Assembly (NCBI GenBank): GCA_016865865.1
Contig: VGOC01000003.1
Span: 24,938-88,937 of the forward strand
Origin: Chloroflexota bacterium
Lineage (GTDB): Bacteria; Chloroflexota; Anaerolineae; Anaerolineales; UBA11858
Direction: 5' to 3'
DNA: 64,000 bases
Under the pieces are notes generated by a model that worked only from the letters and a program-made list of their open reading frames with translations, was not told where the DNA came from and ran no database searches. Shown piece after piece: positions 2,396 through 22,593 of the stretch. Numbering within the stretch: the first letter of the stretch is position 1; the number at the start of each line of letters is the position of its first letter. A program made the translations under genes and the position numbers.

Positions 2396-3433
2396 TCATG
2401 ATTCTTGGATAGAACTCTTGCGTACGACCAGACTCGGTTTGACCCAACTGATATCCGGTTTGAAATCTTCATTATTCTGATGCGCCTGGATGAATTTCGC
2501 CATTTGCTCGACGGCGATCGCCCCCAATTTTTTCGCATTCTGTCTGACCGTGGTCAAGGATGGATAGAAATAGGCCGCTTCGGGGATGTCATCGAAACCG
2601 ACGATCCCCAGGTCATTGGGTACTTCCATTCCAATTCGCCGGGCGGCCTGGAAGACGCCTAGCGACATTTGATCATTGCTGACGAAGATGGCGTCTACAT
2701 CTGGGGCTTTGGCGATCAGTGAATGCAGCCCAACTTCGCCGCTGGCGGCTGTCCAATCGCCTTCGACTTTCAGGTTATCCAGGTCATCGAGGCCCGCCTC
2801 GAGCATGGTCTCGCGCCAGCCTAATTCGCGCTGCTGCGCCTCCCACCATTCGGCAGGCCCTGTAATGATGCCGATGCGCCGATAACCCTGTTCTAAAAGA
2901 TGTTCTGTGGCCAGATGGCCCCCGAGGCGGTTATCCATGGCGGCGATGGCGTCGTCATTGGTTTTCTCTTTATTCAAAAAAACCACCGGGATCGGAATAT
3001 CGGATAACTTCTTTGGTAGTCCCCGAAGCGCCTGGCTGATGCCTGGGACCGCCCAGATGATGCCTTCGACCTGTCGAGAGAGCAAATCCCGCAGGATTTC
3101 ATCCACTCGCTCCATCTCGAAACGATCCAACAGACTCAAAATAAACGAAAACCCCAACTCATTGGATTTTTGCTCGATCCCTGTCAACACGCTGGTAGAG
3201 CCGTAGTAACCCAATCCGAAGCCGACGACGCCCAGTGTATTGCTCCTGCCGCGACTGAGGCTGCGAGCGAGTACATTCGGGGCATAGCCCAGGTTGGCGA
3301 TCACTTCCTGGACGCGCGCCCGAGTTTCTGGCGAGACATCATGACGATTGTTCAGAACGCGTGAAACGGTTTGGGTGGAAACCCCCGCAGCTTTGGCGAC
3401 ATCTTTAATCGTGATTTTATGGTTGTGAGCCAT
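2396..3433 (-). CDS. LacI family transcriptional regulator
   Basis: N-terminal HTH ITIKDVAKAAGVSTQTVSRVLNN followed by a periplasmic-binding-protein-like sugar-binding fold, 345 aa. Confidence 0.9.
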   Translation of the reverse strand: MAHNHKITIKDVAKAAGVSTQTVSRVLNNRHDVSPETRARVQEVIANLGYAPNVLARSLSRGRSNTLGVVGFGLGYYGSTSVLTGIEQKSNELGFSFILSLLDRFEMERVDEILRDLLSRQVEGIIWAVPGISQALRGLPKKLSDIPIPVVFLNKEKTNDDAIAAMDNRLGGHLATEHLLEQGYRRIGIITGPAEWWEAQQRELGWRETMLEAGLDDLDNLKVEGDWTAASGEVGLHSLIAKAPDVDAIFVSNDQMSLGVFQAARRIGMEVPNDLGIVGFDDIPEAAYFYPSLTTVRQNAKKLGAIAVEQMAKFIQAHQNNEDFKPDISWVKPSLVVRKSSIQES

Positions 3434-3444
3434 CTACACCTTGC

Positions 3445-3468
3445 GTTATCGTTCCCGTTAGCGATAAC
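3445..3468. promoter_or_regulatory. Candidate LacI-type operator (GTTATCGTT-CCC-GTTAGCGATAAC) in the 5' leader of the LacI gene
   Basis: Near-palindromic 12-mer GTTAGCGATAAC with a CG centre, typical of LacI/GalR operators. A second copy of the same composite motif lies at 3587-3610. Confidence 0.5.
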
Positions 3469-3586
3469 ATGCGCCTGATACAAAAATAGCATATTGGCCT
3501 CCTTCAGTCAAGTTTGTTATGTATTATGTCACGAGGATCGGGTGATTAAACTCATATAAACCCCTTGATATGCGAACTAGCAAAAT

Positions 3587-3610
3587 GTTATCGTTTCTGT
3601 TATCGCTAAC
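3587..3610. promoter_or_regulatory. Second candidate LacI-type operator (GTTATCGTT-TCT-GTTATCGCTAAC)
   Basis: Same 9-mer plus the reverse-complement form of the 12-mer at 3457-3468, about 140 bp away. The spacing is compatible with looping or auto-regulation. Confidence 0.45.
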
Positions 3611-3613
3611 ATT

Positions 3614-3714
3614 CGAGTAGAGGATCCGGGACGGCATAGATGGGGGTGCGTATGCATCACGCACCTATATATATGCCGCCCCGCCCCCTCGTTCATGAGT
3701 TTTTCAGTGAACTC
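3614..3714. repeat. Family A palindromic repeat, decayed copy lacking the left outer arm
   Basis: CGAGTAGAGGATCCGGGACGGCATAGATGGGGGTGCG...GCACCTATATATATGCCGCCCCGCCCCCTCGTTCATGAGTTTTTCAGTGAACTC aligns with the copies at 17473, 33176 and 41163. Confidence 0.8.
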
Positions 3715-3756
3715 AATGAAGCATTTTCAGTATCATCTCAATAATTGAAGGAGGGC

Positions 3757-3795
3757 GGGGGGTGTGCGGGCGGCGAAGCCGTCCGCACACCCCCC
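3757..3795 (-). terminator. GC-rich hairpin 14 nt downstream of the URO-D-like stop; possible terminator or stabiliser
   Basis: GGGGGGTGTGCGG...CCGCACACCCCCC forms a 13-bp stem. No clean U-tract follows, so terminator function is uncertain. Confidence 0.35.
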
Positions 3796-3808
3796 ATCTT
3801 CCCCCAAG

Positions 3809-4846
3809 TTATTGAGAAGATACCATTTTCAGCAAAGCAGCGACATTCTCCATAGAAATGTCTGTCATCATCCGGTGTGAAGGAGCAACGATCAGTCCGG
3901 TTTTATTGGGCGCAAGAGTTGCGATACACTTTTCGGTCGCCTCTCTGACCTCGAGGGGGGTTCCATGAGGCAGCACGGTCTGTGTAGAAATCCCCCCGTA
4001 GTAGGCCAGGCGATCCCCGAAGGCGTTCTTCAACCAGGCGTGATCCAACACCTCGGGCTGGACTGGATTGAGAGCGGTCAAACCGATTTCGACCAGGTCT
4101 GGCAGAATCCGAGCGATCTGTCCATCGGAGTGCATCATGACCGGCAGGCCAGCCTCGAGGAAGGGTTGGAATAACCGCTTCAGGCGCGGCTTGATCATCG
4201 TCTGCCACATCGCAGGGGAAAAAAGCAGGTTCGCCTGCGCGCCGTAGTCATCGCCAAAATAGCCGCCGTCTACGCCTAGCCCGATAAAGCGTTCGATCAG
4301 AATCAACTGGATTTCTGTCACCCGCTCCAGGAGTTCTTCGACCCAAATCGGATCGAGGGCCATCTCCAGCAGAAGGGTGTCGAATCCGCGCAACGACCAG
4401 GCTCTCTCGAACAGGGCCCAACCGAAGTTCGGAACGATGAAATGCTGGCCGCCATCGGCTGCGATCTTCGCTGCGGCCTCATCCATCAATTGGGGCTCAT
4501 GCGGATCAGGCCAGGGGAAGGCATCCAGATCTTTCGACTCCGCCAGGGGATTGTAGGCTGCGTAGTAACCCTCCTCCTCCACATCGAAACCGACGCCCCA
4601 CCAATCGTATTTCCATTTGCCATCGGCGCTAACCCTGGCATCGTAGGAAAGATCGACGCGCAGCAGATGATTGCCAAGGAATTCGGGCAAATCATCCAAG
4701 GCAACATCGAAACGGGCAGCCATCTTCTGCCCCATGGCGTGGGTGTAATTGATCTGTGTGGGCAGATGATCCACTGGCTGGTGGGCAAGTGTTCGTTGCA
4801 GGCGTTCTTTCGGTGTCATTGGCGATCGGAGTTCATGTATGCGCAA
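3809..4846 (-). CDS. Uroporphyrinogen decarboxylase (URO-D) family protein, MtaA/CmuA-like methyltransferase fold
   Basis: 345 aa with N-terminus MTPKERLQRTLAHQPVDHLPTQINY. Length is typical of the URO-D family. The start could be M1 or M10. Confidence 0.65.
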   Translation of the reverse strand: MRIHELRSPMTPKERLQRTLAHQPVDHLPTQINYTHAMGQKMAARFDVALDDLPEFLGNHLLRVDLSYDARVSADGKWKYDWWGVGFDVEEEGYYAAYNPLAESKDLDAFPWPDPHEPQLMDEAAAKIAADGGQHFIVPNFGWALFERAWSLRGFDTLLLEMALDPIWVEELLERVTEIQLILIERFIGLGVDGGYFGDDYGAQANLLFSPAMWQTMIKPRLKRLFQPFLEAGLPVMMHSDGQIARILPDLVEIGLTALNPVQPEVLDHAWLKNAFGDRLAYYGGISTQTVLPHGTPLEVREATEKCIATLAPNKTGLIVAPSHRMMTDISMENVAALLKMVSSQ

Positions 4847-4945: not shown

Positions 4946-4974
4946 TTGACTAGATTTCCCAGGACGGGTATATT
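4946..4974 (+). promoter_or_regulatory. Sigma-70-like promoter for the AsnC-family gene (TTGACT-17 nt-TATATT)
   Basis: TTGACT at 4946-4951 and TATATT at 4969-4974 with 17-nt spacing, 40 nt upstream of the ATG at 5014. Confidence 0.5.
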
Positions 4975-5013
4975 TACTGTGCTTGTTAGAAACGGAAATA
5001 AATAGAAGTAATA

Positions 5014-5496
5014 ATGTATAAAATCGACAAGATAGACTACGATATTGTTACTTTCTTGATGGAAGACGGACGCATGTCTGCTTCCGAGATTGCGCGGCGG
5101 CTGGGAGATGTGACCGAGCGCACCATCCGGTATCGCATCGAGCGCATGGTAGAGGAGGGGTTGATGCGCATCAGCGCTGTGGTCAATCCACAGGCTTTGG
5201 GCTTCGATACGATAGCCGACGTCTTCGTAGAGGTCGAGTCTGACTTGATTGCCGATGTAGCAGAAAAAGTCGCCCGGTTCGATAATGTCAGCTATGTGGC
5301 GTATTCGATTGGCGAGACTGATGTCAGCGTGCAGGTGGTTGCTAAGGACACAGCCGATGTGTATCGCTTCGTGACCGAGGTGATCCGCAGGATCCCCGGT
5401 GTGCGCAAAACGACCACTTCGATCGTGCCTTCGATTGTCAAAGATGTTTACCAATGGCCTATCCCTGCCAGCCTTCTGGCAGATGTCGGCGAATAG
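5014..5496 (+). CDS. Lrp/AsnC family transcriptional regulator
   Basis: IDKIDYDIVTFLMEDGRMSASEIARRLGDVTERTIRYRIERMVEEGL HTH plus a C-terminal RAM-like domain, 160 aa. Confidence 0.9.
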   Translation: MYKIDKIDYDIVTFLMEDGRMSASEIARRLGDVTERTIRYRIERMVEEGLMRISAVVNPQALGFDTIADVFVEVESDLIADVAEKVARFDNVSYVAYSIGETDVSVQVVAKDTADVYRFVTEVIRRIPGVRKTTTSIVPSIVKDVYQWPIPASLLADVGE

Positions 5497-5580
5497 TTTT
5501 GGCTCTCTTCAGATTTGTGGGAGACGGCAGTTGAAAACTGCACCAACACCTGCGAAGTTGCCCTTCGGAGAGAATGACGT

Positions 5581-6939
5581 ATGACGCAAACCCTGAACGA
5601 TGCCCTTGTTTATTCGCAGCGTTGGCTGGAGATCATTCACAAGGACGAAGTGTCCGAAGCGGAGGGGAAACAAATCATCGAGGAATCCACGCAAAACTTT
5701 GCTGAATATTTCAACCGCGGCTGGCTGGAGTACCGCAAATCCGTCACCGAGGCTGGCGATTGGGCTGCCACCGAATGGACGGGCCGGGGGGCTGTCTTTC
5801 GGGATGTGCTGGGCCGCGAGTATCTCGACTGCCTGGGCGGGTTCGGCATGATGAACCTGGGCTGGGGGCACCCCGACGTGGCAGCCGCCGTCGCCGCCCA
5901 ACTCAAACGAACCCCTATGCCCAGCCAGGAGTTGATTGACCCGCTGCGCGGCGTGCTGTCGCGGTTGATGGCGCAAATCACGCCCGGCGACCTGAAATAT
6001 AGCTTCTTCGCTGCCAGCGGAACCGAGGCCATCGAGGGCGCAATCAAGCTGGCCAAGATGTACACCCGAAAGAACGGCTTCATCGTGGCGGTGAAAGCCT
6101 TCCACGGCAAAACCATGGGGTCGCTCTCGATGATGGGCAAATCTGATTACCGCGCCCCTGCAGGGATGCTCTACGGCGGGCCGGTCTATCACGCGCCCTT
6201 CGGCGACGCCGAGGCCGTCGAGCGCCAGTTGGATATCTGCCAGAAAGTGGGTGTGGATATCGCCGCGGTGCTGATGGAACCCATCCAGGGCGAGGCCGGG
6301 GTGATCGTCCCGCCGGATGATTTCTGGCCGCGCATTCGTGAGGCTACCCGTCACTACGGTGTGCTGCTGATCGCCGACGAGGTGCAGACCGGCCTCGGGC
6401 GCACCGGTAAACTCTGGGGCGTGGATCACTGGAAGGTCACGCCTGACATCCTGGCGGTTGCCAAATCCCTGGGCGGGGGCGTGATGCCGGTGAGCGCCTT
6501 CTGCTCGACCGAGGAAATCTGGCAGGTGATGATGGAACCTAACCCCTTCATTCACACGACTACCACCGGGGGCGGCGCGCTGGCCTGTTCAGCCGCCATC
6601 GCCTCGATCCACGTCACGCTGCGCGACCGCCTGTGGGAACAGGCAGCCGCCAAAGGGGAGTATCTCATCCCGAAATTGAAAGACCTGGCAGCCAGGTATC
6701 CCCAAATCTACCAGGAAATCACCGGCAAAGGTTTGTTCATCGGCCAGCACTTCCACACCCCGGAACTCGGCTACAAGGTGGCTGCTGGCCTGTTCAAGCG
6801 CGGCGTACTGGTATCTGGCACGCTGACCAGCGCTAAAACCATCCGCATCGAGCCTCCGTTGGTGATTACGTATGAGCAAATAGACGAGCTGCTCGACCGG
6901 CTGGAGGATACGCTGGAAGACGTAAAACGTAATGCGTAA
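5581..6939 (+). CDS. patA: Putrescine aminotransferase (class-III PLP aminotransferase, YgjG/PatA type)
   Basis: Block-by-block resemblance to E. coli PatA: FNRGWLEYRKSVTEAGDWAATEW, YLDCLGGFGMMNLGWGHP, SQELIDPLR, LKYSFFAASGTEAIEGAIKLAK, EPIQGEAGVIVPP, DEVQTGLGRTGK, PDILAVAKSLGGGVMP, HTTTTGG. Confidence 0.85.
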   Translation: MTQTLNDALVYSQRWLEIIHKDEVSEAEGKQIIEESTQNFAEYFNRGWLEYRKSVTEAGDWAATEWTGRGAVFRDVLGREYLDCLGGFGMMNLGWGHPDVAAAVAAQLKRTPMPSQELIDPLRGVLSRLMAQITPGDLKYSFFAASGTEAIEGAIKLAKMYTRKNGFIVAVKAFHGKTMGSLSMMGKSDYRAPAGMLYGGPVYHAPFGDAEAVERQLDICQKVGVDIAAVLMEPIQGEAGVIVPPDDFWPRIREATRHYGVLLIADEVQTGLGRTGKLWGVDHWKVTPDILAVAKSLGGGVMPVSAFCSTEEIWQVMMEPNPFIHTTTTGGGALACSAAIASIHVTLRDRLWEQAAAKGEYLIPKLKDLAARYPQIYQEITGKGLFIGQHFHTPELGYKVAAGLFKRGVLVSGTLTSAKTIRIEPPLVITYEQIDELLDRLEDTLEDVKRNA

Positions 6940-6990
6940 AACGTAATGCGAAAAACGTGAGGTGTAGTTTCACGTTTCACGTTTTACGTT
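6920..6990. repeat. Family F repeat: CGTAAAACGTAATG x2 followed by an inverted ACGTGAAAC block
   Basis: Direct repeat at 6921-6934 and 6935-6948, plus the inverted AAAACGTGA...TCACGTTTCACGTTTT. It contains the patA stop codon. Confidence 0.7.
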
Positions 6991-7030
6991 TCCCTATTCC
7001 CTCATCGTGCCAACCCACGAAAGGTATTCC

Positions 7031-8407
7031 ATGAACATCTTCGATCCTCTTTTTCTCTCCCGGACCCAGAAATCGAAAGCCATGTTCGAGCGCGCCAGCC
7101 GGCGATTGCCAGGAGGGGTAGCTGGCAACGGCAAATTCCTGCGGCCCTATCCAATCTATGTGGGGCAGGCGCAGGGGGGCGAGTTCCTGGATGTGGACGG
7201 CAACCGCTATGTGGATTTACTGATGGGCGCCGGTGTACATATTCTAGGCCATTCGCCCGAGGTGGTGATGAGCGCCGTGGAAGGCCAGTTGCGCAAGGGC
7301 GCGCAGTATTATATGGCCGCCGAAGCTGAGGTGCTCCTGGCCGAGAAGATTTGTTACTTGATGCCGCACGTCGAGATGGTGCGTTTCGTCAACACCGGCT
7401 CGGAGGCCACTCAAATGGCCTTGCGGGCAGCCCGTGCTTATCGCAAACGTGATAAGATCGCCAAATTCGAGGGCAATTTCCACGGCCAGCACGAGGCGGT
7501 GCTGATCAGCACCCTGGGAGCGGAGGGGGAGGCGGACGCGCCATCCCCGCGGATAGATAGCGCGGGGGTGCCCGCGTCGACTCGCCAGGGGGTGCTGGTG
7601 TTGCCCTACAACGACGCCGGGCGCGCTGCGGCCTTGATCGAGGCGCATGCCGACGAGTTGGGCGCGGTGATCCTGGAACCCGTCTCGGCCTTTGGCCTGG
7701 GCGTGGCGGCTGCCGAGCCCGATTTTCTCCAGGCGGTGCGCGACGTTACGGCGAAGCACGGCATCCCGTTGATTTTCGACGAGATTGTGACTAACTTCCG
7801 CCTGGGGTTGGGCGGGGCGACGGAATATTTCGGCGTCACGCCCGATCTAGTCTGCCTGGGCAAGATCGTGGGGGGCGGCTTCGCTATTGGCGGCTATGGC
7901 GGGCGTCGCGAGATCATGGATCAGGTGGTCACGCCGCGCACCGGGCTGTGGAATCTCAGCGAGCAGATTTTCCAATCGGGCTGTTTTTCGGGCAATCCCA
8001 TCTCGATGATGGCCGGGCTGGCCGTGCTCACCGAACTCGAAAAAGGGCAGGTTCACCCGTATATCAACCGAATCGCCGAACGATTACAGATTGGCTTGAC
8101 AGAGATCGGCGAGCGGCTGGGCTTCCCCATCCTGGTCAATCGGGCGGCTTCGTGCTTTCAGGTGCATTTCGGGGTCGAACGTATCCGCAATAAGCGCGAT
8201 CAACTGTGCGCTGACAAGAAGATCGCTGATTTGTTCCACTATGGCCTGCGCGCTCACGGGGTGATGGCAAGCTCACATCCTCTGTTCATTTCCGCTGCCC
8301 ACACCGACCAGCATGTCGGCGTCGTGCTGGAAGCGGCAGAGCGCGTCTTGGAACAGATGCGGGACGCGGACACTTCGACTTCGCTCAGTGCAAGCGAGCG
8401 CGGATGA
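7031..8407 (+). CDS. Class-III PLP aminotransferase (glutamate-1-semialdehyde aminomutase-like family)
   Basis: ORF 7007..8407 trimmed to the ATG at aa 9 (GAAAGG RBS). Motifs LPGGVAGNGKF, VNTGSEATQMALRAARAY, FDEIVTNFRLG, LGKIVGGGF. The last 14 codons lie inside repeat C1. Confidence 0.8.
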   Translation: MNIFDPLFLSRTQKSKAMFERASRRLPGGVAGNGKFLRPYPIYVGQAQGGEFLDVDGNRYVDLLMGAGVHILGHSPEVVMSAVEGQLRKGAQYYMAAEAEVLLAEKICYLMPHVEMVRFVNTGSEATQMALRAARAYRKRDKIAKFEGNFHGQHEAVLISTLGAEGEADAPSPRIDSAGVPASTRQGVLVLPYNDAGRAAALIEAHADELGAVILEPVSAFGLGVAAAEPDFLQAVRDVTAKHGIPLIFDEIVTNFRLGLGGATEYFGVTPDLVCLGKIVGGGFAIGGYGGRREIMDQVVTPRTGLWNLSEQIFQSGCFSGNPISMMAGLAVLTELEKGQVHPYINRIAERLQIGLTEIGERLGFPILVNRAASCFQVHFGVERIRNKRDQLCADKKIADLFHYGLRAHGVMASSHPLFISAAHTDQHVGVVLEAAERVLEQMRDADTSTSLSASERG

Positions 8408-8422
8408 GCGCGGAAAGAAGCG
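8362..8422. repeat. Family C repeat, partial copy (C1)
   Basis: GGACGCGGACACTTCGACTTCGCTCAGTGCAAGCGAGCGCGG is the reverse complement of 9645-9686 with one mismatch. Confidence 0.8.
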
Positions 8423-8437
8423 AGAGCCGAGAGAGCC

Positions 8438-9547
8438 ATGAATGAATTCTGCGTAGAGTTGCGCGACGTGGTGAAGCGGTTTCCTACCCCCGAGGGGAGT
8501 GAGGTATTTGCCGTTGACCACGTCACCATGCAAATCAAGAACGGCGAGTTCTTCTCCATGTTGGGGCCGTCGGGCTGCGGGAAAACCACCTCGCTGCGCA
8601 TGGTCGCCGGGTTCGAGTGGCCCACCGTCGGGGAGGTCTATATCGAGGGCGAAGCCATGGGGCGCAGGCCGCCCTATTTGAGGCCGGTCAACACCGTCTT
8701 CCAGAGTTACGCCCTCTTCCCGCACATGTCGGTCGCCGAGAATGTGGCCTACGGTCTCGAAATGGAGAAGACGCCCAAATACGAGATCAAACGCCGCGTC
8801 GGCGAGATTCTGGAGATGGTCAAGCTGAGCGGCATGGAACGGCGCAAGCCCAGGCAGCTCTCCGGCGGACAGCAGCAGCGCGTCGCACTGGCGCGTGCGC
8901 TGGTCAAACATCCAAAGGTGCTGCTGTTGGATGAACCCCTCGGCGCCCTCGACTTGAAGCTGCGCAAGGAGATGCAGTTGGAATTGAAAGCCCTGCAGCA
9001 AGAAGTGGGGATCACCTTCGTTTACGTGACTCATGACCAGGAGGAAGCCCTGACTATGTCCGACCGCATCGCCGTGATGGATCATGGCCGGGTGCTGCAA
9101 ATCGGCGCGCCGGTGGAAATCTACGAGCGCCCCAACAGCCGCTTCGTGGCCGACTTCATCGGCGAGACCAATTTCCTCAGCGGCGAGGCGCGCGCCATCG
9201 AGGAGGACCGCGTCACGGTGTATATCCCCAGCCTGAAGGATGAACTGGTCGGCGCCAAGGCCGCGCCGGTAAACGTGGGTGATCAGGTGGTCGTCTCGAT
9301 GCGCCCGGAGAAAATCCGCCTGGCCTCTGATAGAGCTTTGCCGCAGAACTGCTTCAGCGGCATCGTGCTGAACACGGCTTACATCGGCTCGGACACGCGC
9401 GTGATCGTAGACCTGGGCGGCGCGCCGCTGGCGGTTTGGGAGCAGAACAAGATCTCCACCCTCGACCCGGAAGCCTATTACGCGCCCGGGGAACAGGTCT
9501 GGGTGGTGGTGCTGCCCGAAAACGCCCTCGTATTGCAGGATGTGTAG
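8438..9547 (+). CDS. potA: Spermidine/putrescine ABC transporter ATP-binding protein
   Basis: Walker A GPSGCGKTT, signature LSGGQQQRVALARAL, Walker B LLLDEP, plus a C-terminal TOBE-like domain, 369 aa. Confidence 0.9.
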   Translation: MNEFCVELRDVVKRFPTPEGSEVFAVDHVTMQIKNGEFFSMLGPSGCGKTTSLRMVAGFEWPTVGEVYIEGEAMGRRPPYLRPVNTVFQSYALFPHMSVAENVAYGLEMEKTPKYEIKRRVGEILEMVKLSGMERRKPRQLSGGQQQRVALARALVKHPKVLLLDEPLGALDLKLRKEMQLELKALQQEVGITFVYVTHDQEEALTMSDRIAVMDHGRVLQIGAPVEIYERPNSRFVADFIGETNFLSGEARAIEEDRVTVYIPSLKDELVGAKAAPVNVGDQVVVSMRPEKIRLASDRALPQNCFSGIVLNTAYIGSDTRVIVDLGGAPLAVWEQNKISTLDPEAYYAPGEQVWVVVLPENALVLQDV

Positions 9548-9590
9548 GTTGTTACCATGCAATCTCTTCTTCATGCGCACAATATGTATC

Positions 9591-9686
9591 GGACGCGGAT
9601 AAACGCGGATTTACGCGGAAATTCAAAAATGAATCCGCGTTCTTCCGCGCTCGCTTGCACTAAGCGAAGTCGAAGTGTCCGCGTCC
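9591..9686. repeat. Family C repeat, full palindromic copy (C2)
   Basis: GGACGCGGATAAACGCGGATTTACGCGGAA...TTCCGCGCTCGCTTGCACTAAGCGAAGTCGAAGTGTCCGCGTCC with terminal inverted GGACGCGGA/TCCGCGTCC. Confidence 0.8.
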
Positions 9687-9701
9687 AATGGAAAAGCCAT
9701 C

Positions 9702-10625
9702 ATGCTGCGAAAGCTGCGAGAAGATAGATCTTTCCAGGGCGCGGTGCTGATCTCGCCCACGCTGCTCTTCATGATTGGGCTGCTGATCATCCCCCTGCTG
9801 CTCACCCTGGTGATCAGCTTCGGCAGCCGCGCCCCCGATGGCACGGTGATCTACGGTTTCTCGTTCGATAACTATGTGCGCCTCTCCGGGGTGCGCACCG
9901 AATGCGACAATGGCAAGTCGCTCTGCCTCGACCCGATCTACATCCAAATCCTGTCGCGCTCGCTGAGCCTGGCTTTCAACACGACCGTGCTGGCGATCCT
10001 GATGGCCTATCCGCTGGCTTACTTCATCGCCCGCGCCCCGGCCAGAAAACGCAACACATTTCTCTTTTTGATCCTGGTGCCGATGTGGACGAACTTCATC
10101 ATCCGCGTCTACGCCTGGATGATGCTGCTGCGCACGCAGGGAGTGATCAACAGCGTCATCGGCTGGCTGGCTGGATTGGTGGGACTGCACTTCACGCCCT
10201 TCGAGATGCTCTACACCCAGGGAGCGGTGCTGGTCGGCATGGTTTATGAGTTCCTGCCCTTTATGATCTTGCCGATCTATACCTCGCTGGAGAAAATCGA
10301 GCTTTCGCTCTACGAAGCCTCGGCAGACCTGGGGGCGCGCCCTTTCCGTACCTTCCTGCGCATGACGCTGCCGCTTTCTATACCGGGGGTGGTCGCCGGG
10401 ACGATCCTGGTTTTCGTGCCGGTGATGGGCACCTTCATCGTCTCCGATTTGCTCGGTGGGCGGCAGATTGTGCTGGTGGGCAACCTGATCCAGAACCAGT
10501 TCCTCATCGCCCGCGACCCCACCTTTGGCTCGGCGGCTTCGCTGATGCTGATGACTCTGACGCTGATCGTGACCTATTTCTACACACGCAAATTCGGCTT
10601 CGGGGAGGAGATCGTGACCGCATGA
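9702..10625 (+). CDS. potB: Spermidine/putrescine ABC transporter permease
   Basis: ORF 9675..10625 trimmed to the first in-frame ATG (aa 10), because upstream codons lie in repeat C2. Multi-TM with an EAA-like loop [17 protein letters not shown]. Confidence 0.85.
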
Positions 10626-11503
10626 ACCCGCATCGCCGTTCTCCCCTGGTCATCGTCTCTACCGTGCTGGTGTATTTCTTCCTGTATGCGCCGGTGGTGG
10701 TTTTATTTCTGTTCGCCTTCAATTCCTCGAAGACCAACGTGCTCTTCGAGGGATTCATCACCCAGGTCGGCCCGACGGAAATCGTCTCCGGGAACGTCAT
10801 TCGGAGTCCCTGCGGCGCGTTCCACTGGTTCTGCGAGCTGGCCAGGAATGTCGAAGTGCGCAACGCCGCCCGAAATACGCTGACCATCGCCTTTGTCTCG
10901 ACGATCACTTCGACCATCATCGGCACGCTGGCGGCGATAGCCTTGCAGCGTTACAGCTTCAGGCTGAAGACCTTTTCGGAGGTTTCGCTGTATATCCCCA
11001 TCGTCATCCCGGAGATTGTGATGGGCATCGGCATTCTGGTCTTGTTCAGTCAGTTGTTTACCCTATTGAACAACACCCTCAGCCTGAGCGGCGACAGCCA
11101 GCTTACCCTGGGATTGGGAACCGTCATCGTTTCGCACATCGCCTTCAGCATCCCCTTTGTGACGCTGGTGGTGCGAGCGCGCCTGCACGGTTTCGACAAG
11201 GCGATCGAGGAGGCCTCGATGGATTTGGGCGCTAACGAAATCATCACTTTCTGGCGTGTGACGCTGCCCTCGATTATGCCGGGGGTGCTCTCCGGGGCGC
11301 TGCTAGCTTTCACTCTCTCACTGGATGATTTCGTGATCACTTTCTTCACCACCGGGCCTGGCGCCTCCACGCTGCCGATCTATGTTTATGGGCTGCTGCG
11401 CCGCATCGTCACCCCCCAGGTCAACGCCCTCTCGGCGGTGTGGATTTCGATTGTGCTGGTGGTCGTCTTCTTCACGCAGCGCCTGCAAAGCCGCCAAATG
11501 TAG
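10622..11503 (+). CDS. potC: Spermidine/putrescine ABC transporter permease
   Basis: ATGA overlap with potB. EAA loop [23 protein letters not shown], 293 aa. Confidence 0.85.
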
Positions 11504-11580
11504 GACAGATTGCCAATCTGTCCTACTCCCAGCGCTTGCAAAGCCGCCAGGCGTAGGACAGGTTGGCAACCTGTTCTACA
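11477..11580. repeat. Tandem ~52-bp duplication of the potC 3' end, each unit carrying a hairpin (Family E)
   Basis: CAGCGCCTGCAAAGCCGCCAAATGTAGGACAGATTGCCAATCTGTCCTAC followed by CAGCGCTTGCAAAGCCGCCAGGCGTAGGACAGGTTGGCAACCTGTTCTAC. Hairpins at 11500-11526 and 11553-11579. Confidence 0.85.
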
Positions 11581-11641
11581 AAAGCCCATATTGCTGCATA
11601 ATGCAGTCACTATTGGTCAAGGAATGCAAGTAGAGTGTAAA

Positions 11642-12010
11642 ATGTCTAATGTTACCATACGGGCGCGCATCAGCCCTGAACTCAAGCGAGAAGCCGAGGC
11701 CGTTTTTGAGGTCATCGGTATGACCACCGCGGGAGCCATTCGTGTCTTTTTGAAACAGGCTGGCAACAGCGGTGGGCTTCCCTTTCCGCCGGTTGCCAGG
11801 AAGCCCAACGCCGAGACTCTAGCAGCGATGATGGAGTTGGAAGATGGCGGTGGGCAAACGTTCCAAACCACGGATGAATTGTTTGCCGATTTGAACGCCT
11901 TCGTCGAAACGCGAATGAACGCGGACAAACGGAAATATCCATGTTTTCCGCGTTCGTCCGCATCCTATGCAAGAAGACCTTTCAACCCATATTTTTACAG
12001 GAGGAAGTAA
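11642..12010 (+). CDS. RelB/DinJ family antitoxin (ribbon-helix-helix), orphan, with a repeat-derived C-terminal extension
   Basis: MSNVTIRARISPELKREAEAVFEVIGMTTAGAIRVFLKQAGNSGGLPF...PNAETLAAMMELEDG...DELFADLN parallels E. coli DinJ (VRARIDEDLK...LPF...PN...DADDLFDKLGI). ATG at aa 45 of ORF 11510..12010. The stop overlaps the potD ATG (TAATG). Confidence 0.75.
   Translation: MSNVTIRARISPELKREAEAVFEVIGMTTAGAIRVFLKQAGNSGGLPFPPVARKPNAETLAAMMELEDGGGQTFQTTDELFADLNAFVETRMNADKRKYPCFPRSSASYARRPFNPYFYRRK
11913..11963. repeat. Family C-related GCGGA-rich palindrome inside the dinJ-like 3' extension
   Basis: GAACGCGGACAAACGG...CCGCGTTCGTCCGC; GAACGCGGA pairs with TCCGCGTTC. Confidence 0.6.
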
Positions 12011-13158
12011 TGAAAAACTCAACCTTTTGGAAATTGCTGGCAGCCATGATGGTATTCAGCCTGCTGTTGGCGGCCTGCGGAGGCAAGGCACCTGCCGCGG
12101 GCGAGGCTGAAGAATTCGTCACCGGTTCGGGATTCGTGTGTCCGGAACCGCAACCGCGCCTCGAGGTGACCTCTCAGGAGTTCAATCTCTTCGTGTGGAC
12201 GGAGTACATCCCCGTCGAGTGGAAGGAATGTTTCGAGAAGGTTTACGGCATCAAAGTGAACCACGATGAGTATTCTAGCAACGAGGAGATGTACGCCAAA
12301 CTCTCCGCCGGCGCCACGACCTACGATCTGATTCTACCCACCGACTACATTGTCTCGTTGATGGTCGGCCAGGGGATGCTCCAACCGTGGGATCATGCCA
12401 AACTGCCGATGCTGGCGAATATCAACCCCGGCTACATGGATCTGCCCTTCGATCCCGGTAATAAGTACACCATCCCCTACATGGCCGGCACGGATGCCAT
12501 GGTCTACAATGCGGAGCGCGTCGCAACCCCGCCGACCTCCTGGGCCGATCTGTGGAATCCCGATTATGCTGGTCGCTTGGTGTTGCTCGATGACCCCCGC
12601 GTGGTGATCGGCTTCACGTTGCTGACCCTGGGCTACGATCTCAACACCAAAGACCCCGCTCAATTGGAAGAGGCCAAAGCGAAACTGTTGGAGCTGATCC
12701 CCAATGTCAAGCTCTTCGATAGCGACAGCCCCAAGACGGCCCTGATCGCCGGAGACGTGGATTTGGGCAATGTCTGGAACGGCGAGGCCTTCACTGCCCA
12801 GCAGGAAGATCCCAATTTCGAGTATGTCTTCCCGAGCGAAGGCACCATCCTGTGGCAGGATAACTGGGCCATCCCGGCCAGCGCCCCGCACCTAGACGCC
12901 GTCTATGCATGGGTGAACTATATCGAGCAGGGTGAAATGTTCTGGATGATGCTGCGTGACTTCCCCTACACCGTGCCCAACGCTGCTGCCCTGGAATACG
13001 CCAAAGCCAACCAGACCGAGTTATACGATGCCTATGTCAACTCGCCGATCACCAACACGCCCGCCGATGTGCTGGCAAACGGCTTCTTCATGGAAGATGT
13101 CGGCGAGGCCACCCCGCTCTACGACCAGATTTGGACCGAGGTCAAGGGCGAGGAGTAA
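12010..13158 (+). CDS. potD: Spermidine/putrescine ABC transporter substrate-binding lipoprotein
   Basis: ORF 11941..13158 trimmed to MKNSTFWKLLAAMMVFSLLLAACGG (lipobox LLAAC) with an AGGAGGA RBS. PotD/PotF-like motifs follow (LFVWTEYIP, YDLILPTDY). Confidence 0.85.
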   Translation: MKNSTFWKLLAAMMVFSLLLAACGGKAPAAGEAEEFVTGSGFVCPEPQPRLEVTSQEFNLFVWTEYIPVEWKECFEKVYGIKVNHDEYSSNEEMYAKLSAGATTYDLILPTDYIVSLMVGQGMLQPWDHAKLPMLANINPGYMDLPFDPGNKYTIPYMAGTDAMVYNAERVATPPTSWADLWNPDYAGRLVLLDDPRVVIGFTLLTLGYDLNTKDPAQLEEAKAKLLELIPNVKLFDSDSPKTALIAGDVDLGNVWNGEAFTAQQEDPNFEYVFPSEGTILWQDNWAIPASAPHLDAVYAWVNYIEQGEMFWMMLRDFPYTVPNAAALEYAKANQTELYDAYVNSPITNTPADVLANGFFMEDVGEATPLYDQIWTEVKGEE

Positions 13159-13169
13159 CAAAACCTTTA

Positions 13170-13235
13170 CCGCAGAGAGCGCTGAATGCGCAGAGAGTTT
13201 GTTATTTTTCTCAGCGTTCTCTTCGTACTCTGCGG
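13170..13235. repeat. Family D palindromic repeat (CCGCAGAG...CTCTGCGG)
   Basis: CCGCAGAGAGCGCTGAATGCGCAGAGAG...CTCTTCGTACTCTGCGG; related copy at 60821-60887. Confidence 0.75.
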
Positions 13236-13265
13236 TTGAATGCACAAAAACGCGAGGAGGCCATT

Positions 13266-15200
13266 ATGGCTTATGGATATGCTGGAAAAATTCTGCACGT
13301 TGATTTGACGCGCGGCGCGCTGACCATCGAAGAGCCGCCGGAAGCGTTTTACCGCAAGTACCTGGGTGGCAGCGCCATGGGCTTGCATTATATTTTAAAA
13401 GAGATGCCCGCCGGCGCAGACCCGCTCGGCCCGGAGAATGTGCTCACCTTGATGCTAGGTGTGACCACCGGCGCGGCCATCTCTGGCCAGAGCCGCGTGA
13501 ACGCTAACGCCAAATCACCGATCAGCAGCGGCATCGGCGATTCACAGGGCGGCGGTTTCTTCCCTGCCGAGATGAAATTCGCCGGCTTCGATGGCATTGT
13601 CGTCAAGGGCAAGTCTCCAAAGCCAGTATATCTCTCCATCATCGAGGGCCAGCCTGAACTGCGCGACGCCAGCCACCTGATGGGCAAGATCACCGGCGAG
13701 GTAGAAGCCATCCTCGAGGAGGAAATCGGCGACGATAAGATCGAAATCCTGCAGCACGGGCCGGCTGCCGAAAAAGGTGTTCTGTTCTCGTCGCTGGTCA
13801 GTATGTCGAACCGCAACAATGGGCGCACGGGCATGGGGCTGGTGATGGCGAGCAAGAATCTCAAGGCCGTGGTAGTGCGCGGCGCGAAGAAGCCCAAACT
13901 GGCCGACCCCAAAGCCCTGACAGCCCTCAACCGCCTGGGGCCAGAATGGCTGCCCGATAATCCCGATATGGTCGGTCTGGGCAAATACGGCACCGCCAGC
14001 GTGGTCATGCCGCAGAACTCTTTTGGCACGCTGCCAACCCGCAATTACAACGAAGGCCAGTTCGAGGGCTGCGAACCGATCAGCGGCGAGGTGATGTACG
14101 ACACCGTGCTGCGCGGCGCCGCGGAGGGCAAACAGGATAAGCTGGGCCGCGATACCTGCTACGCCTGTGTGGTGCGCTGCAAGCGCACGGTCGAGATCAG
14201 CGATGAGCAGTATAAAGTCAACCCGCGCTATGGCGGCCCGGAATACGAGACCCTGGGCACTTTCGGCTCGTACTGCGGCATTGACGACCTGGCGGCGGTC
14301 TGCCTGGCGAATGAGATCTGCAACCAGTATGGCGTGGATACGATTGCCTGCGGGGCGACGATTGCCTTTGCGATGGAGTGCTTCGAGAAGGGCGTCATCG
14401 GCTTGCAGCAGACCAGCGGCGTGGAGTTGCGCTTTGGTAACGTGGATGCGATGCTGGTCGCTCTGCGAATGATTGTTCACAAAGAGGGCGCGCTGGGAAG
14501 GGCGTTGGCCCAAGGCTCGGAGCGGGCGGCCAGACTCTGGGGGAATGGCGCGGATGAGTGTCTGATTACCGTCAAGGGCGCAGAGGCCCCGGCGCACATG
14601 CCGCAGGCCAAACGTTCCCTGGGGCTGATCTACGCCGTCAACCCCTTCGGCGCCGACCACCAATCCAGCGAGCACGACTGGATGTACGAAGAGGGCATGG
14701 CGACCAATCTATACCTGGGAAGGCTGGCGATGCTCGGCTTGAACGAGGTCCAACCAGCGATGAGCCTCGGCCCAGAGAAAGCGCGCTACGCTTACCTGAC
14801 GCATGTCTTCTACTCGATGCTGGACTCCGCCGAGTTGTGCCAGTTCGTCTGGGGGCCAGCCTGGACGCTCTATGGGCCGGCTGAGGTGGTCGAATTGCTG
14901 CGCGCAGTGACAGGCTGGGAGATGAGCCTGGACGAATTAATGGCTGTGGGCGCCCGCCGCCTGAATCTGATGCGCGTCTTCAACGCCCGCGAGGGGTTGA
15001 CCCGTGAGCACGATAGGCTGCCCAAGAAGTTCTTCGAGACGCTGCAAGGCGAAGGCCCCACCGCTGGGATTGCCCTCGATGAAGCCGAAATAGAGACCGC
15101 CATCAGCCGATACTACGAGTTTGCCGGTTGGACATCGGATGGCATCCCCACCACCGCGACGCTCGAAAAGCTCGATCTGGCGTGGGCGGCGGAGGTGTAG
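13266..15200 (+). CDS. Aldehyde:ferredoxin oxidoreductase (AOR family, tungsto/molybdopterin + 4Fe-4S)
   Basis: ORF 13131..15200 trimmed to MAYGYAGKILHVDLTRG (GAGGAGG RBS). AOR N-terminal domain, then GMGLVMASKNLKAVVVRG and the cluster motif CYACVVRC. Confidence 0.9.
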   Translation: MAYGYAGKILHVDLTRGALTIEEPPEAFYRKYLGGSAMGLHYILKEMPAGADPLGPENVLTLMLGVTTGAAISGQSRVNANAKSPISSGIGDSQGGGFFPAEMKFAGFDGIVVKGKSPKPVYLSIIEGQPELRDASHLMGKITGEVEAILEEEIGDDKIEILQHGPAAEKGVLFSSLVSMSNRNNGRTGMGLVMASKNLKAVVVRGAKKPKLADPKALTALNRLGPEWLPDNPDMVGLGKYGTASVVMPQNSFGTLPTRNYNEGQFEGCEPISGEVMYDTVLRGAAEGKQDKLGRDTCYACVVRCKRTVEISDEQYKVNPRYGGPEYETLGTFGSYCGIDDLAAVCLANEICNQYGVDTIACGATIAFAMECFEKGVIGLQQTSGVELRFGNVDAMLVALRMIVHKEGALGRALAQGSERAARLWGNGADECLITVKGAEAPAHMPQAKRSLGLIYAVNPFGADHQSSEHDWMYEEGMATNLYLGRLAMLGLNEVQPAMSLGPEKARYAYLTHVFYSMLDSAELCQFVWGPAWTLYGPAEVVELLRAVTGWEMSLDELMAVGARRLNLMRVFNAREGLTREHDRLPKKFFETLQGEGPTAGIALDEAEIETAISRYYEFAGWTSDGIPTTATLEKLDLAWAAEV

Positions 15201-15264
15201 AGCCTATTACTCGACGTTAGCGATCTGAAAATGAGGCGGGACGATCAGTTCGGTGTGCAGCATC

Positions 15265-16410
15265 TCAGCCGCTTTGGGCAAGAAGATCTCTTCCGAAGAG
15301 CAGGAAGGCCCCCAAAGCGGTCAGCACACCCACCCCAATCGCGCCGTACATCCCAGCCACGCCCAGGCCGTCTATCAGCAAGCCGCCCAGCAATCCCCCT
15401 CCTGCTACGCCGAAGCCCATTAAAAAGCAGCCCAGTACTCCCTGAGCGGTGGCGCTCGATCCCGGTGGGGTGTTTCGTGAGGCAAAGTTCACCCCCGCCA
15501 CCCACAGGGCCGGGAAAGTCAGCCCGTGGAACGCCTGAATAGCCAGGACGAATTCAGGTCTGGCAGAAAAGGCGTACAACATGCAACGCAAACCGGTGAC
15601 CCCCATTGCCAGTGAAAGCAAACCGCGGCTTCCGAACTTCTGCAGCAGGCGGTTGGAGAAGAACATCACGGGCAGCTCGAAGATCGTCGAGATTGTCAGG
15701 GCGACTCCCACTAAACCTTTGCTGGCGCCCATTTCGTCCAACAGCAACGCCAGGTAGTTGGTGTGGGCGGACAGGCCGATGGCGGCGACGATGATCATCC
15801 CCAGAAAGAGCTGCCATTGCCGGTTGGCCAGCACGGCGCGCAGCCCCTGCCAGAAAGGCGTCGTCGAGGCGCTGTGTGGGAATTCCAGGCGTTGGATGGG
15901 GACCAGGGTGATGATGATCAGGGCTGCATAGATCCAAAACATCCATTGTAATCCCAGACGTTGGAAAAGCTCACCGGCCAGGGGCGCGCACAGCCCCCAA
16001 CCGATGGTGCCCCATAGGCGGATACGCCCATATTCATCCCTCCGATCGCCCAACATGGAAAGGGTGGCGCTGTCTATCAAGGCTATGATCGGCGCTGAGA
16101 AGAAGGCCAGGCCGAGGATGGCCAAAAGCAGCAAGGCAAATGAACCGATTACTGGGATGAGCAGGTTCACCCCTGCGGCAGCGACCAGGGTCGTTGTCAA
16201 CACTGTTCGATGGCACTGCCGGGAATCGGCCAGTCCCGTCCAGAATGGCGAGGCGAACAGGGTCACCAGTGGTGAGACGCTGAGCAGCAAGCCGATCTGG
16301 CTGCCCGAAAGCCCCAGGGATTGATAATAGAGCGCCAGGAAGGGTACCACCGCGGCGATGGCAGCGAAGTACAGAAAATAGATGATCGAAGACCAGGTGT
16401 GCGCGCGCAT
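15265..16410 (-). CDS. MFS transporter (MFS_1_like / nucleoside-sugar symporter-like)
   Basis: 381 aa, about 12 predicted TM segments. TGATG overlap with the upstream SIS gene. Confidence 0.8.
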   Translation of the reverse strand: MRAHTWSSIIYFLYFAAIAAVVPFLALYYQSLGLSGSQIGLLLSVSPLVTLFASPFWTGLADSRQCHRTVLTTTLVAAAGVNLLIPVIGSFALLLLAILGLAFFSAPIIALIDSATLSMLGDRRDEYGRIRLWGTIGWGLCAPLAGELFQRLGLQWMFWIYAALIIITLVPIQRLEFPHSASTTPFWQGLRAVLANRQWQLFLGMIIVAAIGLSAHTNYLALLLDEMGASKGLVGVALTISTIFELPVMFFSNRLLQKFGSRGLLSLAMGVTGLRCMLYAFSARPEFVLAIQAFHGLTFPALWVAGVNFASRNTPPGSSATAQGVLGCFLMGFGVAGGGLLGGLLIDGLGVAGMYGAIGVGVLTALGAFLLFGRDLLAQSG

Positions 16411-17456
16411 CAGTGGGTGCGGGTGATTTTGTTCAGGCCGCGCGGCTGGTCTGGATCATAGCCCTTCGCCAAAGCGAGATGGCAGGTGAACAACTGGGCC
16501 AGGACGATGTTCACGATGGGGGTCAGCCATTCAGGGATGCCGCTGGTCAACGGGATGGGGGATTGCGCCAGCCCCAGGATCAACTCATCGTCGGAGATGA
16601 CCACCAGTTCGACCTGATGCCCCTCGCGCAGGGTTGTGAGCATCCCTGACATCGAGGGGAAGACCTGCCCGCGGGGAGCCACTGCCAGCACGGGGAAGCC
16701 CCCTTCGACCATGGCGATCGGCCCATGCTGGAAATCTGCCGACGAGTACGGCTCAGCGATGATATAGGTTAGTTCTTTCAACTTCAAGGCCCATTCGAAG
16801 GCCGTGGCATAGTTGAAGCCACGCCCCAGAACGACGCATTGATCCATATAACGATAACGCTGCGCCATATGGACGATGGATTCATCCTGTTCGAGGGCTT
16901 GTGCAACCCACCTGGGGACTTTTTCCAACTCAGCCCAGCGGGCAGGATCAGGAGCCAGGGCGACTGAGAGCATGGCGATAGCAGCTAATTGGGCGGTGTA
17001 TGACTTCGTGGCGGCAACGGCCTGCTCTTCGCCAGCCTGTATGTCGAAGACCAGGTCGGCGCGCTCCGTCAGTGGGGAGTCGGGTGCGTTGGTGATCGCC
17101 AGCGTCAGGCAGCCTTGCTCGCGCCCCTCGTTTAGCACGCTGATGATATCTGGCGAGAATCCCGACTGGGAGACGCCGACGACCAGGGCGCTTCGAAGGG
17201 AGGGCGGCGATTTGTAATAGGTGAACAGGGAGGGTGTTGCCAGGGCTATAGGGTAACGATTGTGTGCGCCCCACAGATAGTTGGCGTAGCGACCGGCGTT
17301 GTCTGAGGAGCCGCGCGCCGTCAGGAAAACATAGCGAATATCGCGCGCCTGAATAGCCTCGGCAATGGCGCAGGCAGCCTGACGTTGATTGTGGATCAGG
17401 GCTTGCAGGCGATCAGGTTGTTCGAAGATCTCTTGGTATAGAGAATAAGGCCGCAT
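16410..17456 (-). CDS. Tandem SIS-domain protein (GlmS isomerase-domain-like; candidate GlcN-6-P deaminase NagB-II/GlmD type)
   Basis: 348 aa with YVFLTARGSSDNAGRYANYL and VGVSQSGFSPDII SIS motifs. No glutaminase domain is present. Confidence 0.75.
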   Translation of the reverse strand: MRPYSLYQEIFEQPDRLQALIHNQRQAACAIAEAIQARDIRYVFLTARGSSDNAGRYANYLWGAHNRYPIALATPSLFTYYKSPPSLRSALVVGVSQSGFSPDIISVLNEGREQGCLTLAITNAPDSPLTERADLVFDIQAGEEQAVAATKSYTAQLAAIAMLSVALAPDPARWAELEKVPRWVAQALEQDESIVHMAQRYRYMDQCVVLGRGFNYATAFEWALKLKELTYIIAEPYSSADFQHGPIAMVEGGFPVLAVAPRGQVFPSMSGMLTTLREGHQVELVVISDDELILGLAQSPIPLTSGIPEWLTPIVNIVLAQLFTCHLALAKGYDPDQPRGLNKITRTH

Positions 17457-17472
17457 TTTCTCTGCTCATCAT

Positions 17473-17593: not shown

Positions 17594-17595
17594 CA

Positions 17596-22592: not shown

Positions 22593-22593
22593 C

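Follow-up and report, generated by a model that had tools for sequence, protein, structure and literature searches.

The locus at positions 4946-15200 of a 64,000-nucleotide stretch of contig VGOC01000003.1, from a bacterium of the order Anaerolineales in the phylum Chloroflexota (the whole stretch is called the window below), is probably a polyamine uptake and catabolism operon of a strictly anaerobic bacterium of this order, in which an aldehyde:ferredoxin oxidoreductase (AOR), and not an NAD(P)-dependent aldehyde dehydrogenase (ALDH), would oxidise the aldehyde produced by omega-transamination. The genes were identified from a listing of open reading frames (ORFs), from Pfam and NCBIfam profile scans and by direct reading of the sequence. 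They form one co-directional array on the + strand, with short spacers, that encodes an AsnC-type regulator, a PatA-like aminotransferase, a second class-III transaminase (AT2), PotA, PotB, PotC, a RelB/DinJ antitoxin, PotD and the AOR; this is the gene order, all on one strand, that an earlier note on the same DNA had named. 3' of AOR, all genes are on the minus strand and belong to a cluster for sugar utilisation, so that AOR is the terminal gene of the polyamine array and not part of another neighbour. A tblastn search of the window found no Pfam Aldedh-type aldehyde dehydrogenase, no second AFOR and no further class-III aminotransferase; in other loci, the same ALDH query picks up ALDHs of only 28-34% identity.

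The association of AOR with polyamine genes was examined by two censuses. A forward scan with one genome per species returned 583 relatives of the AOR, and the best 80 (63-75% identity), all from metagenome-assembled genomes (MAGs) of Anaerolineales/Chloroflexota, were examined; the window's own genome is outside these species representatives, among which the best AOR match is 75%. Flanks of 10 kb were searched by tblastn with the proteins of the window and of two well-assembled loci, and only loci with enough flank were counted. In 34 of 49 loci, an orthologue of PatA (at least 60% identity; range 68-86%) is encoded 5' of AOR in the same orientation; PotA, PotB and PotC lie 5' of it in 26-28/49, and a PotD-type gene in 34/55. 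Four other families recur on its two sides: a saccharopine/carboxyspermidine-dehydrogenase-like (CASDH-like) gene no more than 4.5 kb 5' of AOR (46/55), and, 3' of AOR, a GabT-like aminotransferase within 3.2 kb (47/49), a HemL-like transaminase of the PRK07046 type, here called TA3 (25/47), and a second AFOR paralogue only 27% identical to AOR, here called AOR2 (27/44). The reverse census started from PatA orthologues (78-86% identity) in 80 metagenome loci; of these, 21 extend at least 9 kb beyond PatA on its 3' side, and 16 of the 21 have an AOR orthologue there on the same strand. By our own uncomputed estimate from genome size and copy number, chance alone would place such a neighbour within 10 kb in about 1% of loci at most. 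The conservation of linkage is thus positive in both directions, in favour of the earlier claim that AOR belongs functionally to the polyamine locus, and the related genomes and metagenome contigs that show it number well above one hundred.

The order of the genes around AOR is fluid. The architectures include patA-potABCD-AsnC-dehydrogenase-like-AOR-GabT-like-TA3-AOR2; patA-dehydrogenase-like-(APC or SSS transporter)-AOR; patA-AT2-potABC-potD-AOR, as in the window; potD-AOR-TA3; patA-AOR; dehydrogenase-like-AOR-ALDH-aminobutyraldehyde dehydrogenase-GabT-like; and patA-dehydrogenase-like-APC-second pot-like transporter-AOR. The transporter beside AOR is interchangeable among three unrelated families, PotABCD, APC and SSS. 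Because the linkage survives at least seven gene orders and three types of transporter, it argues for selection rather than mere inheritance. In many related loci, an orthologue of the AsnC regulator (50-66% identity) directly precedes patA or the cluster. The order AOR-GabT-like-TA3-AOR2 was also observed in a Brevefilum MAG (L051; loci are designated by L and a number).

Relatives of AOR at 77-86% identity were looked up one by one. Their gene orders are potB-potC-potD-AOR-TA3 in L166 (AOR 82% identical), potD-AOR-TA3-agmatinase-like in L085 (86%), AOR-TA3 in L167 (85%), potB-potC-potD-AOR in L084 (79%), potD-AOR in L168 (77%) and AsnC-TA3-SSS-PatA-AOR in L083 (83%). The PotD of the window is 81-95% identical to the PotD encoded directly 5' of AOR in L084, L085, L166 and L168. 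In this closest sub-lineage, AOR is inside the polyamine operon, between the gene for the binding protein and another transaminase gene. The window differs from it in having AT2 between patA and potA, and no transaminase after AOR, where the convergent sugar cluster stands instead; a rearrangement breakpoint near 15200-15265 is suggested, because the nearest relatives have TA3 at that place. In L083, genes for agmatine deiminase (aguA; TIGR03380, 582 bits) and putrescine carbamoyltransferase (ptcA; TIGR04384, 527 bits), both above the curated cut-offs, occupy positions 1981-4101 and are divergent from the AsnC-TA3-SSS-PatA-AOR array. In that organism, putrescine, with which the agmatine deiminase pathway ends, would be broken down further rather than exported.

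The AOR gene (13266..15200, + strand) encodes a predicted oxygen-sensitive, tungstopterin-type protein of 644 aa with the AFOR_N (PF02730, 214.6 bits, E 1e-63) and AFOR_C (PF01314, 392 bits, E 4e-117) domains, both matched over their full length. The ORF formally opens at TTG 13131, which the earlier note had taken as the start; the ATG at 13266, with GAGGAGG just 5' of it, is most likely the true one, and the protein that results is identical to that called on public contigs. The GGAGG ribosome-binding site is kept in relatives. Among proteins in PDB, the best matches are AOR of Pyrococcus furiosus (1AOR, 343 bits), 9MQX (328), 9G7J (318) and AOR of Aromatoleum aromaticum (8C0Z, 314), followed at a distance by FOR (250), WOR83 (225), BamB (180) and WOR5 (179); the GAPOR model gives 19.6 bits, and the YdhV-type model NF007354 gives 190 bits against a cut-off of 868. 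Judged by these bit scores, the enzyme of the window is evidently closer to AOR sensu stricto than to FOR, GAPOR, WOR5, BamB or YdhV. All four ligands of the [4Fe-4S] cluster (Cys288, Cys291, Cys295 and Cys494 in P. furiosus numbering) are kept, with CYACVVRC aligned to CYACPIGC and AELCQF to AGLCLF. Two insertions relative to 1AOR are found around residues 285-295 and 470-505. A 2025 review lists Thr243, Glu313, Tyr427 and His448 as second-shell residues of AOR sensu stricto (PMC12096430); in the alignment to 1AOR, Thr243 (KYGTA), Glu313 (PEYE) and His448 (GADH) are kept in the window enzyme.

The most economical reading of this AOR is a putative simple ferredoxin-dependent enzyme of the archaeal type, because no partner genes of the AorA/AorC type are adjacent to it. 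Tungsten and molybdenum enzymes of the AOR family are not distinguishable by sequence. A MogA/MoaB-like gene with a MoCF_biosynth domain was observed at 38951-39490 and is consistent with supply of a pterin cofactor for AOR; no gene for a tungstate or molybdate transporter, a ferredoxin or a hydrogenase was found among the scanned ORFs of the window.

The PatA/YgjG-like protein (5581..6939, + strand), a predicted class-III pyridoxal phosphate-dependent diamine (putrescine) aminotransferase, narrowly misses the cut-off of NF008570 (590 bits vs 612) and scores 489 against 659 with TIGR03372, so that it stays under the equivalog cut-offs. Its best matches in PDB are the structures of E. coli PatA, at 436 bits; acetylornithine/acetyl-lysine aminotransferase, the family that comes after, reaches 238. 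The characterised E. coli PatA is its nearest experimentally defined relative, clearly apart from the other class-III families.

AT2 (7007..8407, + strand) is a HemL-like class-III transaminase that scores 379 bits with NF000818 (cut-off 398) and 369 with TIGR00713 (cut-off 527); its top matches in PDB are glutamate-1-semialdehyde (GSA) aminomutases, at 286 bits. Orthologues at 79-83% identity in L059, L065, L091, L095, L102, L103 and L149 stand beside patA or the dehydrogenase-like gene. We considered AT2 as a true HemL and rejected this, both HemL cut-offs being missed and the orthologues lying in polyamine and not in haem clusters. The minus-strand gene at 3809-4846, which diverges from that of AsnC, encodes a weak member of the URO-D family (78 bits); a methyltransferase/decarboxylase-like paralogue is a likelier reading of it than a haem enzyme, and it lends no support to a haem-related role of AT2. 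The earlier note had cast the second aminotransferase as GabT, and the family scores rule this out: AT2 reaches 129 bits on the GabT model TIGR00700, whose cut-off is 507, and is only 26% identical to the GabT-like enzyme of the relatives (28% to TA3), a separate protein that follows AOR in nearly all of them and is absent from the window. AT2 is better seen as a candidate second omega-transaminase with unassigned specificity.

The transporter genes follow directly. PotA (8438..9547, + strand), the ATPase, exceeds the cut-off of the polyamine subfamily model TIGR01187 (383 bits vs 355.6) and scores 407 with the PotA model NF006987. The two permeases are PotB-like (9675..10625, + strand; top match NF007044 PotB, 234 bits, under the equivalog cut-off) and PotC-like (10622..11503, + strand; top match NF007047 PotC, 207 bits), the start of potC overlapping the stop of potB by 4 nt. 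The PotD-like spermidine/putrescine-binding lipoprotein (12010..13158, + strand) has a signal peptide with the lipobox LAAC and matches NF007048 PotD with 238 bits vs 124 for PotF, under the equivalog cut-off. With its polyamine-subfamily ATPase, a pair of permeases and a binding protein of the PotD/F type, the operon encodes what is, by family assignment, a predicted PotABCD-type importer.

The series is broken by a gene of the RelB/DinJ family (11642..12010, + strand; PF04221; TIGR02384, 60.8 bits vs cut-off 45.65), the stop of which overlaps the ATG of potD (TAATG). The 'dinJ' seen in the pot array by the earlier note does have the antitoxin domain; its toxin partner is missing, with no toxin ORF on either side, and it is an orphan antitoxin. 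Upstream of it, the 3' end of potC is duplicated in tandem (11470..11575): the two 53-nt copies are 79% identical, carry a 27-nt palindrome each, and together form one large hairpin (dG -73 kcal/mol, z = -6.2) that is unique in the window. The duplication may be read as the scar of the relB insertion. The insertion is not at the potC-potD junction of L084, nor was it found in the censused loci L003-L082 and L086-L165, and relB is apparently a recent insertion between potC and potD. Promoter-like sites 5' of relB could now also drive potD and AOR. The final 38 or so codons of relB extend across an inverted repeat of 18 nt and have the appearance of read-through.

The spacer of 107 nt between potD and AOR contains an imperfect hairpin (13169..13236, + strand), and the folding of the whole region is unremarkable (z = -1.66). 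We considered the hairpin as a terminator or as a repeated element and rejected both: it is not followed by a T run, the terminator scan, which found no + strand terminator-like site between potD and AOR, missed it, it is absent from L084 and L085 at the same spacer, and it is unique in the window. The hairpin is neither evidence for read-through into AOR nor strong evidence against it.

The genes that recur around AOR in the relatives extend the picture. The CASDH-like gene (for example L025:8509-9714 and L028:6909-8129) lies immediately 5' of AOR, or with only a transporter gene between. Its product belongs to the saccharopine dehydrogenase family, has 4INA and 4RL6 (both 'saccharopine dehydrogenase') and carboxyspermidine dehydrogenase 8DEB as best solved relatives, and is far under the cut-off for carboxynorspermidine synthase (about 200 bits vs 800); a catabolic role is conceivable, in which it would split secondary amines and so supply AOR with an aminoaldehyde. 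AOR2, a protein of about 573 aa, is encoded at the cluster end (L025:15538-17259, L028:14451-16478). We tried to place AOR2 as FOR-like, which would fit semialdehydes, and rejected this, its top match being the AOR-type 9MQX at 233 bits vs 166 for FOR. Because the relatives usually carry this distant second paralogue, a division of labour is suggested, in which two different AOR enzymes would share out the aldehyde steps; a single AOR oxidising both aldehydes, as the earlier note had it, is not supported.

Dehydrogenases of the conventional kind also occur in some clusters. At L010:11936-14820, genes for a lactaldehyde-dehydrogenase-like ALDH and then an aminobutyraldehyde dehydrogenase (NF010000, 685 bits vs cut-off 615) come after AOR and before the GabT-like gene, and a similar arrangement is found in L035, L021, L024 and L040; these clusters thus encode both the NAD-dependent and the AOR type of aldehyde oxidation. 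A CoA-acylating ALDH of the MMSDH type (TIGR01722, 560 bits vs 448.5) is encoded 5' of patA in 21 of 49 loci; it hints at handling of beta-alanine and malonate semialdehyde, and hence at possible use of the aminopropyl moiety of spermidine. The earlier description of a route without NAD-dependent ALDHs is therefore true for the window and does not hold generally among its relatives. Because loci of the L010/L035 type encode an aminobutyraldehyde dehydrogenase and many others the MMSDH-type ALDH, the cluster appears to handle intermediates of the 4-aminobutanal type. An extended module before patA was observed at L097:1131-9927, in the order AsnC, a distant AT2-like transaminase (about 32% identity), a PRK06062-type aminotransferase, the MMSDH-type ALDH, an APC-family permease, a metallophosphoesterase-like protein and a 268-aa protein without Pfam match; similar modules occur in L089, L090, L114, L116, L119, L126, L157, L161 and L165, and one such island holds up to six different class-III aminotransferases.

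The pathway that we propose would run as follows. Under control of the AsnC-type regulator, PotABCD would import a polyamine, and the PatA-like enzyme, by its homology to E. coli PatA, would transfer a terminal amino group to a 2-oxo acid and so convert putrescine to 4-aminobutanal or cadaverine to 5-aminopentanal. AOR, in keeping with the chemistry of its family and with the conserved linkage, would then oxidise the aminoaldehyde to 4-aminobutyrate (GABA) or 5-aminovalerate and pass two electrons through its [4Fe-4S] cluster to ferredoxin, from which these low-potential electrons would go to H2 or to energy conservation as ion-motive force. Such reduction of ferredoxin is possible because the acid/aldehyde couple lies at about -580 mV, below ferredoxin. 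A fermenter can turn reduced ferredoxin into H2 or ion-motive force, and an NAD-dependent dehydrogenase wastes the potential difference. Further transamination is possible, by AT2 here and by the GabT-like enzyme in the relatives, and a second aldehyde oxidation would be left, if it takes place at all, to the same AOR here and to AOR2 or an ALDH in the relatives. Continuation to succinate semialdehyde and succinate would depend on AT2 or on genes beyond the window, and the route may stop at GABA; the end product succinate, which the earlier note drew, is not supported, since it cannot be inferred for the organism from 64 kb, and the GabT-like enzyme and AOR2 are absent there.

A wider version of this proposal, which we hold only tentatively, would make the whole AOR clade a dedicated aminoaldehyde/semialdehyde:ferredoxin oxidoreductase and the core of a polyamine-fermentation module of Anaerolineales, in which every aldehyde is oxidised with ferredoxin and not with NAD(P). 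The module would consist of the CASDH-like enzyme, the transporter, AOR, the GabT-like enzyme, the HemL-like transaminase and the second AOR, and would serve putrescine, spermidine and cadaverine; the CASDH-like enzyme would run in the catabolic direction and split a secondary amine of the spermidine type into a diamine and an aminoaldehyde for AOR. If this is true, degradation of polyamines and necromass in anoxic sediments, lakes and digesters depends on tungsten or molybdenum and is coupled to H2 formation.

Several observations weigh against the assignment of AOR to polyamine catabolism. The CASDH-like, GabT-like, TA3 and AOR2 genes are all absent from the 64-kb window by tblastn, and because these tightest partners of AOR elsewhere are missing, the local pathway may be incomplete or different. 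Given the spacer and hairpin before it, AOR may have a separate transcript. PatA falls below its NCBIfam equivalog cut-offs, as do PotB, PotC and PotD. In several relatives, AOR is not the sole candidate for the aminoaldehyde step, because an aminobutyraldehyde dehydrogenase and a second ALDH are encoded in the same cluster. All the related genomes come from the single lineage Anaerolineales/Chloroflexota, so that the counts are not independent events. Finally, Tyr427 is replaced by His (APAHMP) in the window enzyme, which leaves three of the four second-shell residues; the active AOR of Clostridium formicoaceticum (AOR_Cf) has the same replacement, according to the review (PMC12096430).

The relatives with conventional dehydrogenases suggest another role for AOR, that of a parallel broad-spectrum scavenger of toxic aminoaldehydes that leak when polyamines are transaminated or cleaved (4-aminobutanal, 3-aminopropanal and the acrolein derived from it), with NAD(P)-dependent dehydrogenases, encoded elsewhere or, in the relatives, within the cluster, carrying the main flux. 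Such an arrangement would resemble the coexistence of AOR with phenylacetaldehyde dehydrogenase in A. aromaticum, where both enzyme types are reportedly, by the title of one study, simultaneously involved in anaerobic phenylalanine metabolism. The clusters of the L010/L035 type, where two dehydrogenases directly follow AOR and precede the GabT-like gene, count in favour of this explanation, as does the frequent MMSDH-type ALDH; the latter, however, is by its family assignment specific for (methyl)malonate semialdehyde and not for aminoaldehydes, most clusters, including that of the window, have no ALDH of the aminobutyraldehyde type, and in the nearest relatives AOR lies inside the operon, between potD and TA3. 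We regard scavenging as unlikely. The adjacency might also be irrelevant, AOR being an independently transcribed general enzyme for the aldehydes of amino-acid (2-oxo-acid) fermentation, a role commonly ascribed to AORs of Anaerolineae. The spacer with its hairpin and the lack of GabT-like and CASDH-like partners in the window speak for this, but the association holds in both directions (34/49 and 16/21), it outlasts many rearrangements and swaps of the transporter, no terminator-like site was found between potD and AOR, and no 2-oxo-acid:ferredoxin oxidoreductase or decarboxylase is linked to AOR in any examined locus; this explanation seems to us distinctly improbable.

The gene immediately 5' of AOR in most relatives, a member of the carboxy(nor)spermidine dehydrogenase/saccharopine dehydrogenase family, brings up a biosynthetic direction. 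Reduced ferredoxin would drive AOR in reverse, turning a carboxylate of GABA, beta-alanine or aspartate into the aldehyde, which the CASDH-like enzyme would condense with a diamine to polyamines of the spermidine or homospermidine type. AOR enzymes can reduce acids when given low-potential electrons, but such reduction is thermodynamically unfavourable for a fermenter. The CASDH-like gene is absent from the window, the clusters consist mainly of uptake systems, Lrp/AsnC regulators, up to five omega-transaminases and the putrescine-producing aguA, ptcA and agmatinase-like genes, and no carboxyspermidine decarboxylase was seen among the recurring gene families of the clustered, scanned inter-gene gaps. 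We consider biosynthesis very improbable indeed, and keep oxidation of transamination-derived aldehydes by AOR as the preferred role.

With this role, the locus would represent a new variant of a known putrescine pathway, in which the aldehyde dehydrogenase steps are replaced non-orthologously by AOR. Our literature search found nothing that links enzymes of the AOR family with putrescine or polyamine catabolism, and no mention of a putrescine aminotransferase in Chloroflexi; subscription journals were thinly covered in both cases, and a prior description of the former is possible. AOR-family enzymes are widespread in bacteria, and most of their clades have no assigned physiological substrate. 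The proposal gives a specific, testable role to a whole AOR clade, with members in hundreds of genomes and contigs of Anaerolineales. If it is true, the textbook putrescine transaminase pathway gains a ferredoxin-reducing, probably tungsten-dependent variant, and the low-potential electrons (for H2 and syntrophy) of abundant, poorly cultivated anaerobic Chloroflexi are accounted for by the polyamines of decaying biomass. It also predicts a need for a trace metal, tungsten or molybdenum, in polyamine degradation, and offers candidate biocatalysts for oxidising or reducing amino-substituted aldehydes and acids.

At its 5' end, the array begins with the gene for the Lrp/AsnC-family transcriptional regulator (5014..5496, + strand), which has HTH_AsnC-type and AsnC_trans_reg domains. 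The best sigma-70-like promoter match of the region, TTGACT-17-TATATT (4946..4974, + strand), agrees with the consensus at 10 of 12 positions and lies 40 bp 5' of the AsnC start; it is no more than a resemblance to the consensus. Neither an Rfam nor a tRNA scan of the window gave a match, and no riboswitch or RNA element accounts for the spacers. The minus-strand cluster that converges on AOR (15265-30561) is devoted to glycans and amino sugars, and encodes MFS and EamA transporters, ABC sugar permeases with a binding protein, a LacI regulator, a SIS-domain protein, GH3, GH4 and GH18 enzymes, YdjC and a BadF/BcrA-type ATPase (N-acetylglucosamine-kinase-like). Farther along, a protein of 603 aa (37137-38948) has a weak PHP domain together with a Schlafen AlbA_2 domain, and its gene adjoins that of a Lon protease (33945-36611). 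At 56001-60000, the GC content is as low as 0.43-0.45, compared to about 0.55 elsewhere in the window; the dip adjoins a GDP-mannose-dehydratase-like gene and an ORF of 651 aa (55821-57776) without Pfam match, and may be a horizontally acquired surface-polysaccharide region.

Parts of the array can be compared with better known systems. Unlike the type II toxin-antitoxin pairs RelBE and DinJ-YafQ, the antitoxin gene of the window has no adjacent toxin gene. With PotABCD of E. coli, the importer shares its four components and the gene order A-B-C-D; it differs in its binding protein, a lipoprotein as in monoderm-type envelopes, in the sub-cut-off scores of PotB, PotC and PotD, and in the orphan relB between potC and potD. 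FOR of P. furiosus (1B25) is the closest precedent for a member of the AOR/WOR family acting on dicarboxylate semialdehydes: it has its lowest Km for glutaric dialdehyde, and glutaric semi- or dialdehyde has been suggested as the native substrate (PMC12096430); the passages of that review that were consulted connect FOR with no gene context of polyamine transport. The window enzyme, with 250 bits against FOR, is nevertheless more similar to AOR sensu stricto. With the AORs of P. furiosus (1AOR) and A. aromaticum (8C0Z) it shares the two-domain architecture, the four cysteines of the [4Fe-4S] cluster and Thr243, Glu313 and His448, and its gene, standing alone without AorA/AorC-type genes, resembles the archaeal homodimeric ferredoxin-dependent form; it differs from AOR sensu stricto in having His for Tyr427 and in the two insertions relative to 1AOR. 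The context is also different, namely polyamine transport and transamination in the window, as opposed to amino-acid-derived aldehydes in archaea and phenylalanine degradation in Aromatoleum. The pathway as a whole is most readily compared with the PatA/YgjG-PatD/YdcW-GabT/PuuE-GabD route of E. coli. Both are uptake-linked, both begin diamine catabolism with a PatA-type class-III aminotransferase, and the relatives add a GabT-like enzyme; the predicted intermediates, 4-aminobutanal, GABA and succinate semialdehyde, would be the same. In contrast to E. coli, the 64-kb window has neither an NAD(P)-dependent ALDH of the PatD or GabD type nor a GabT-type enzyme; an enzyme of the AOR family stands instead at the place in the operon expected for aldehyde oxidation, and the electron acceptor would be ferredoxin and not NAD(P).

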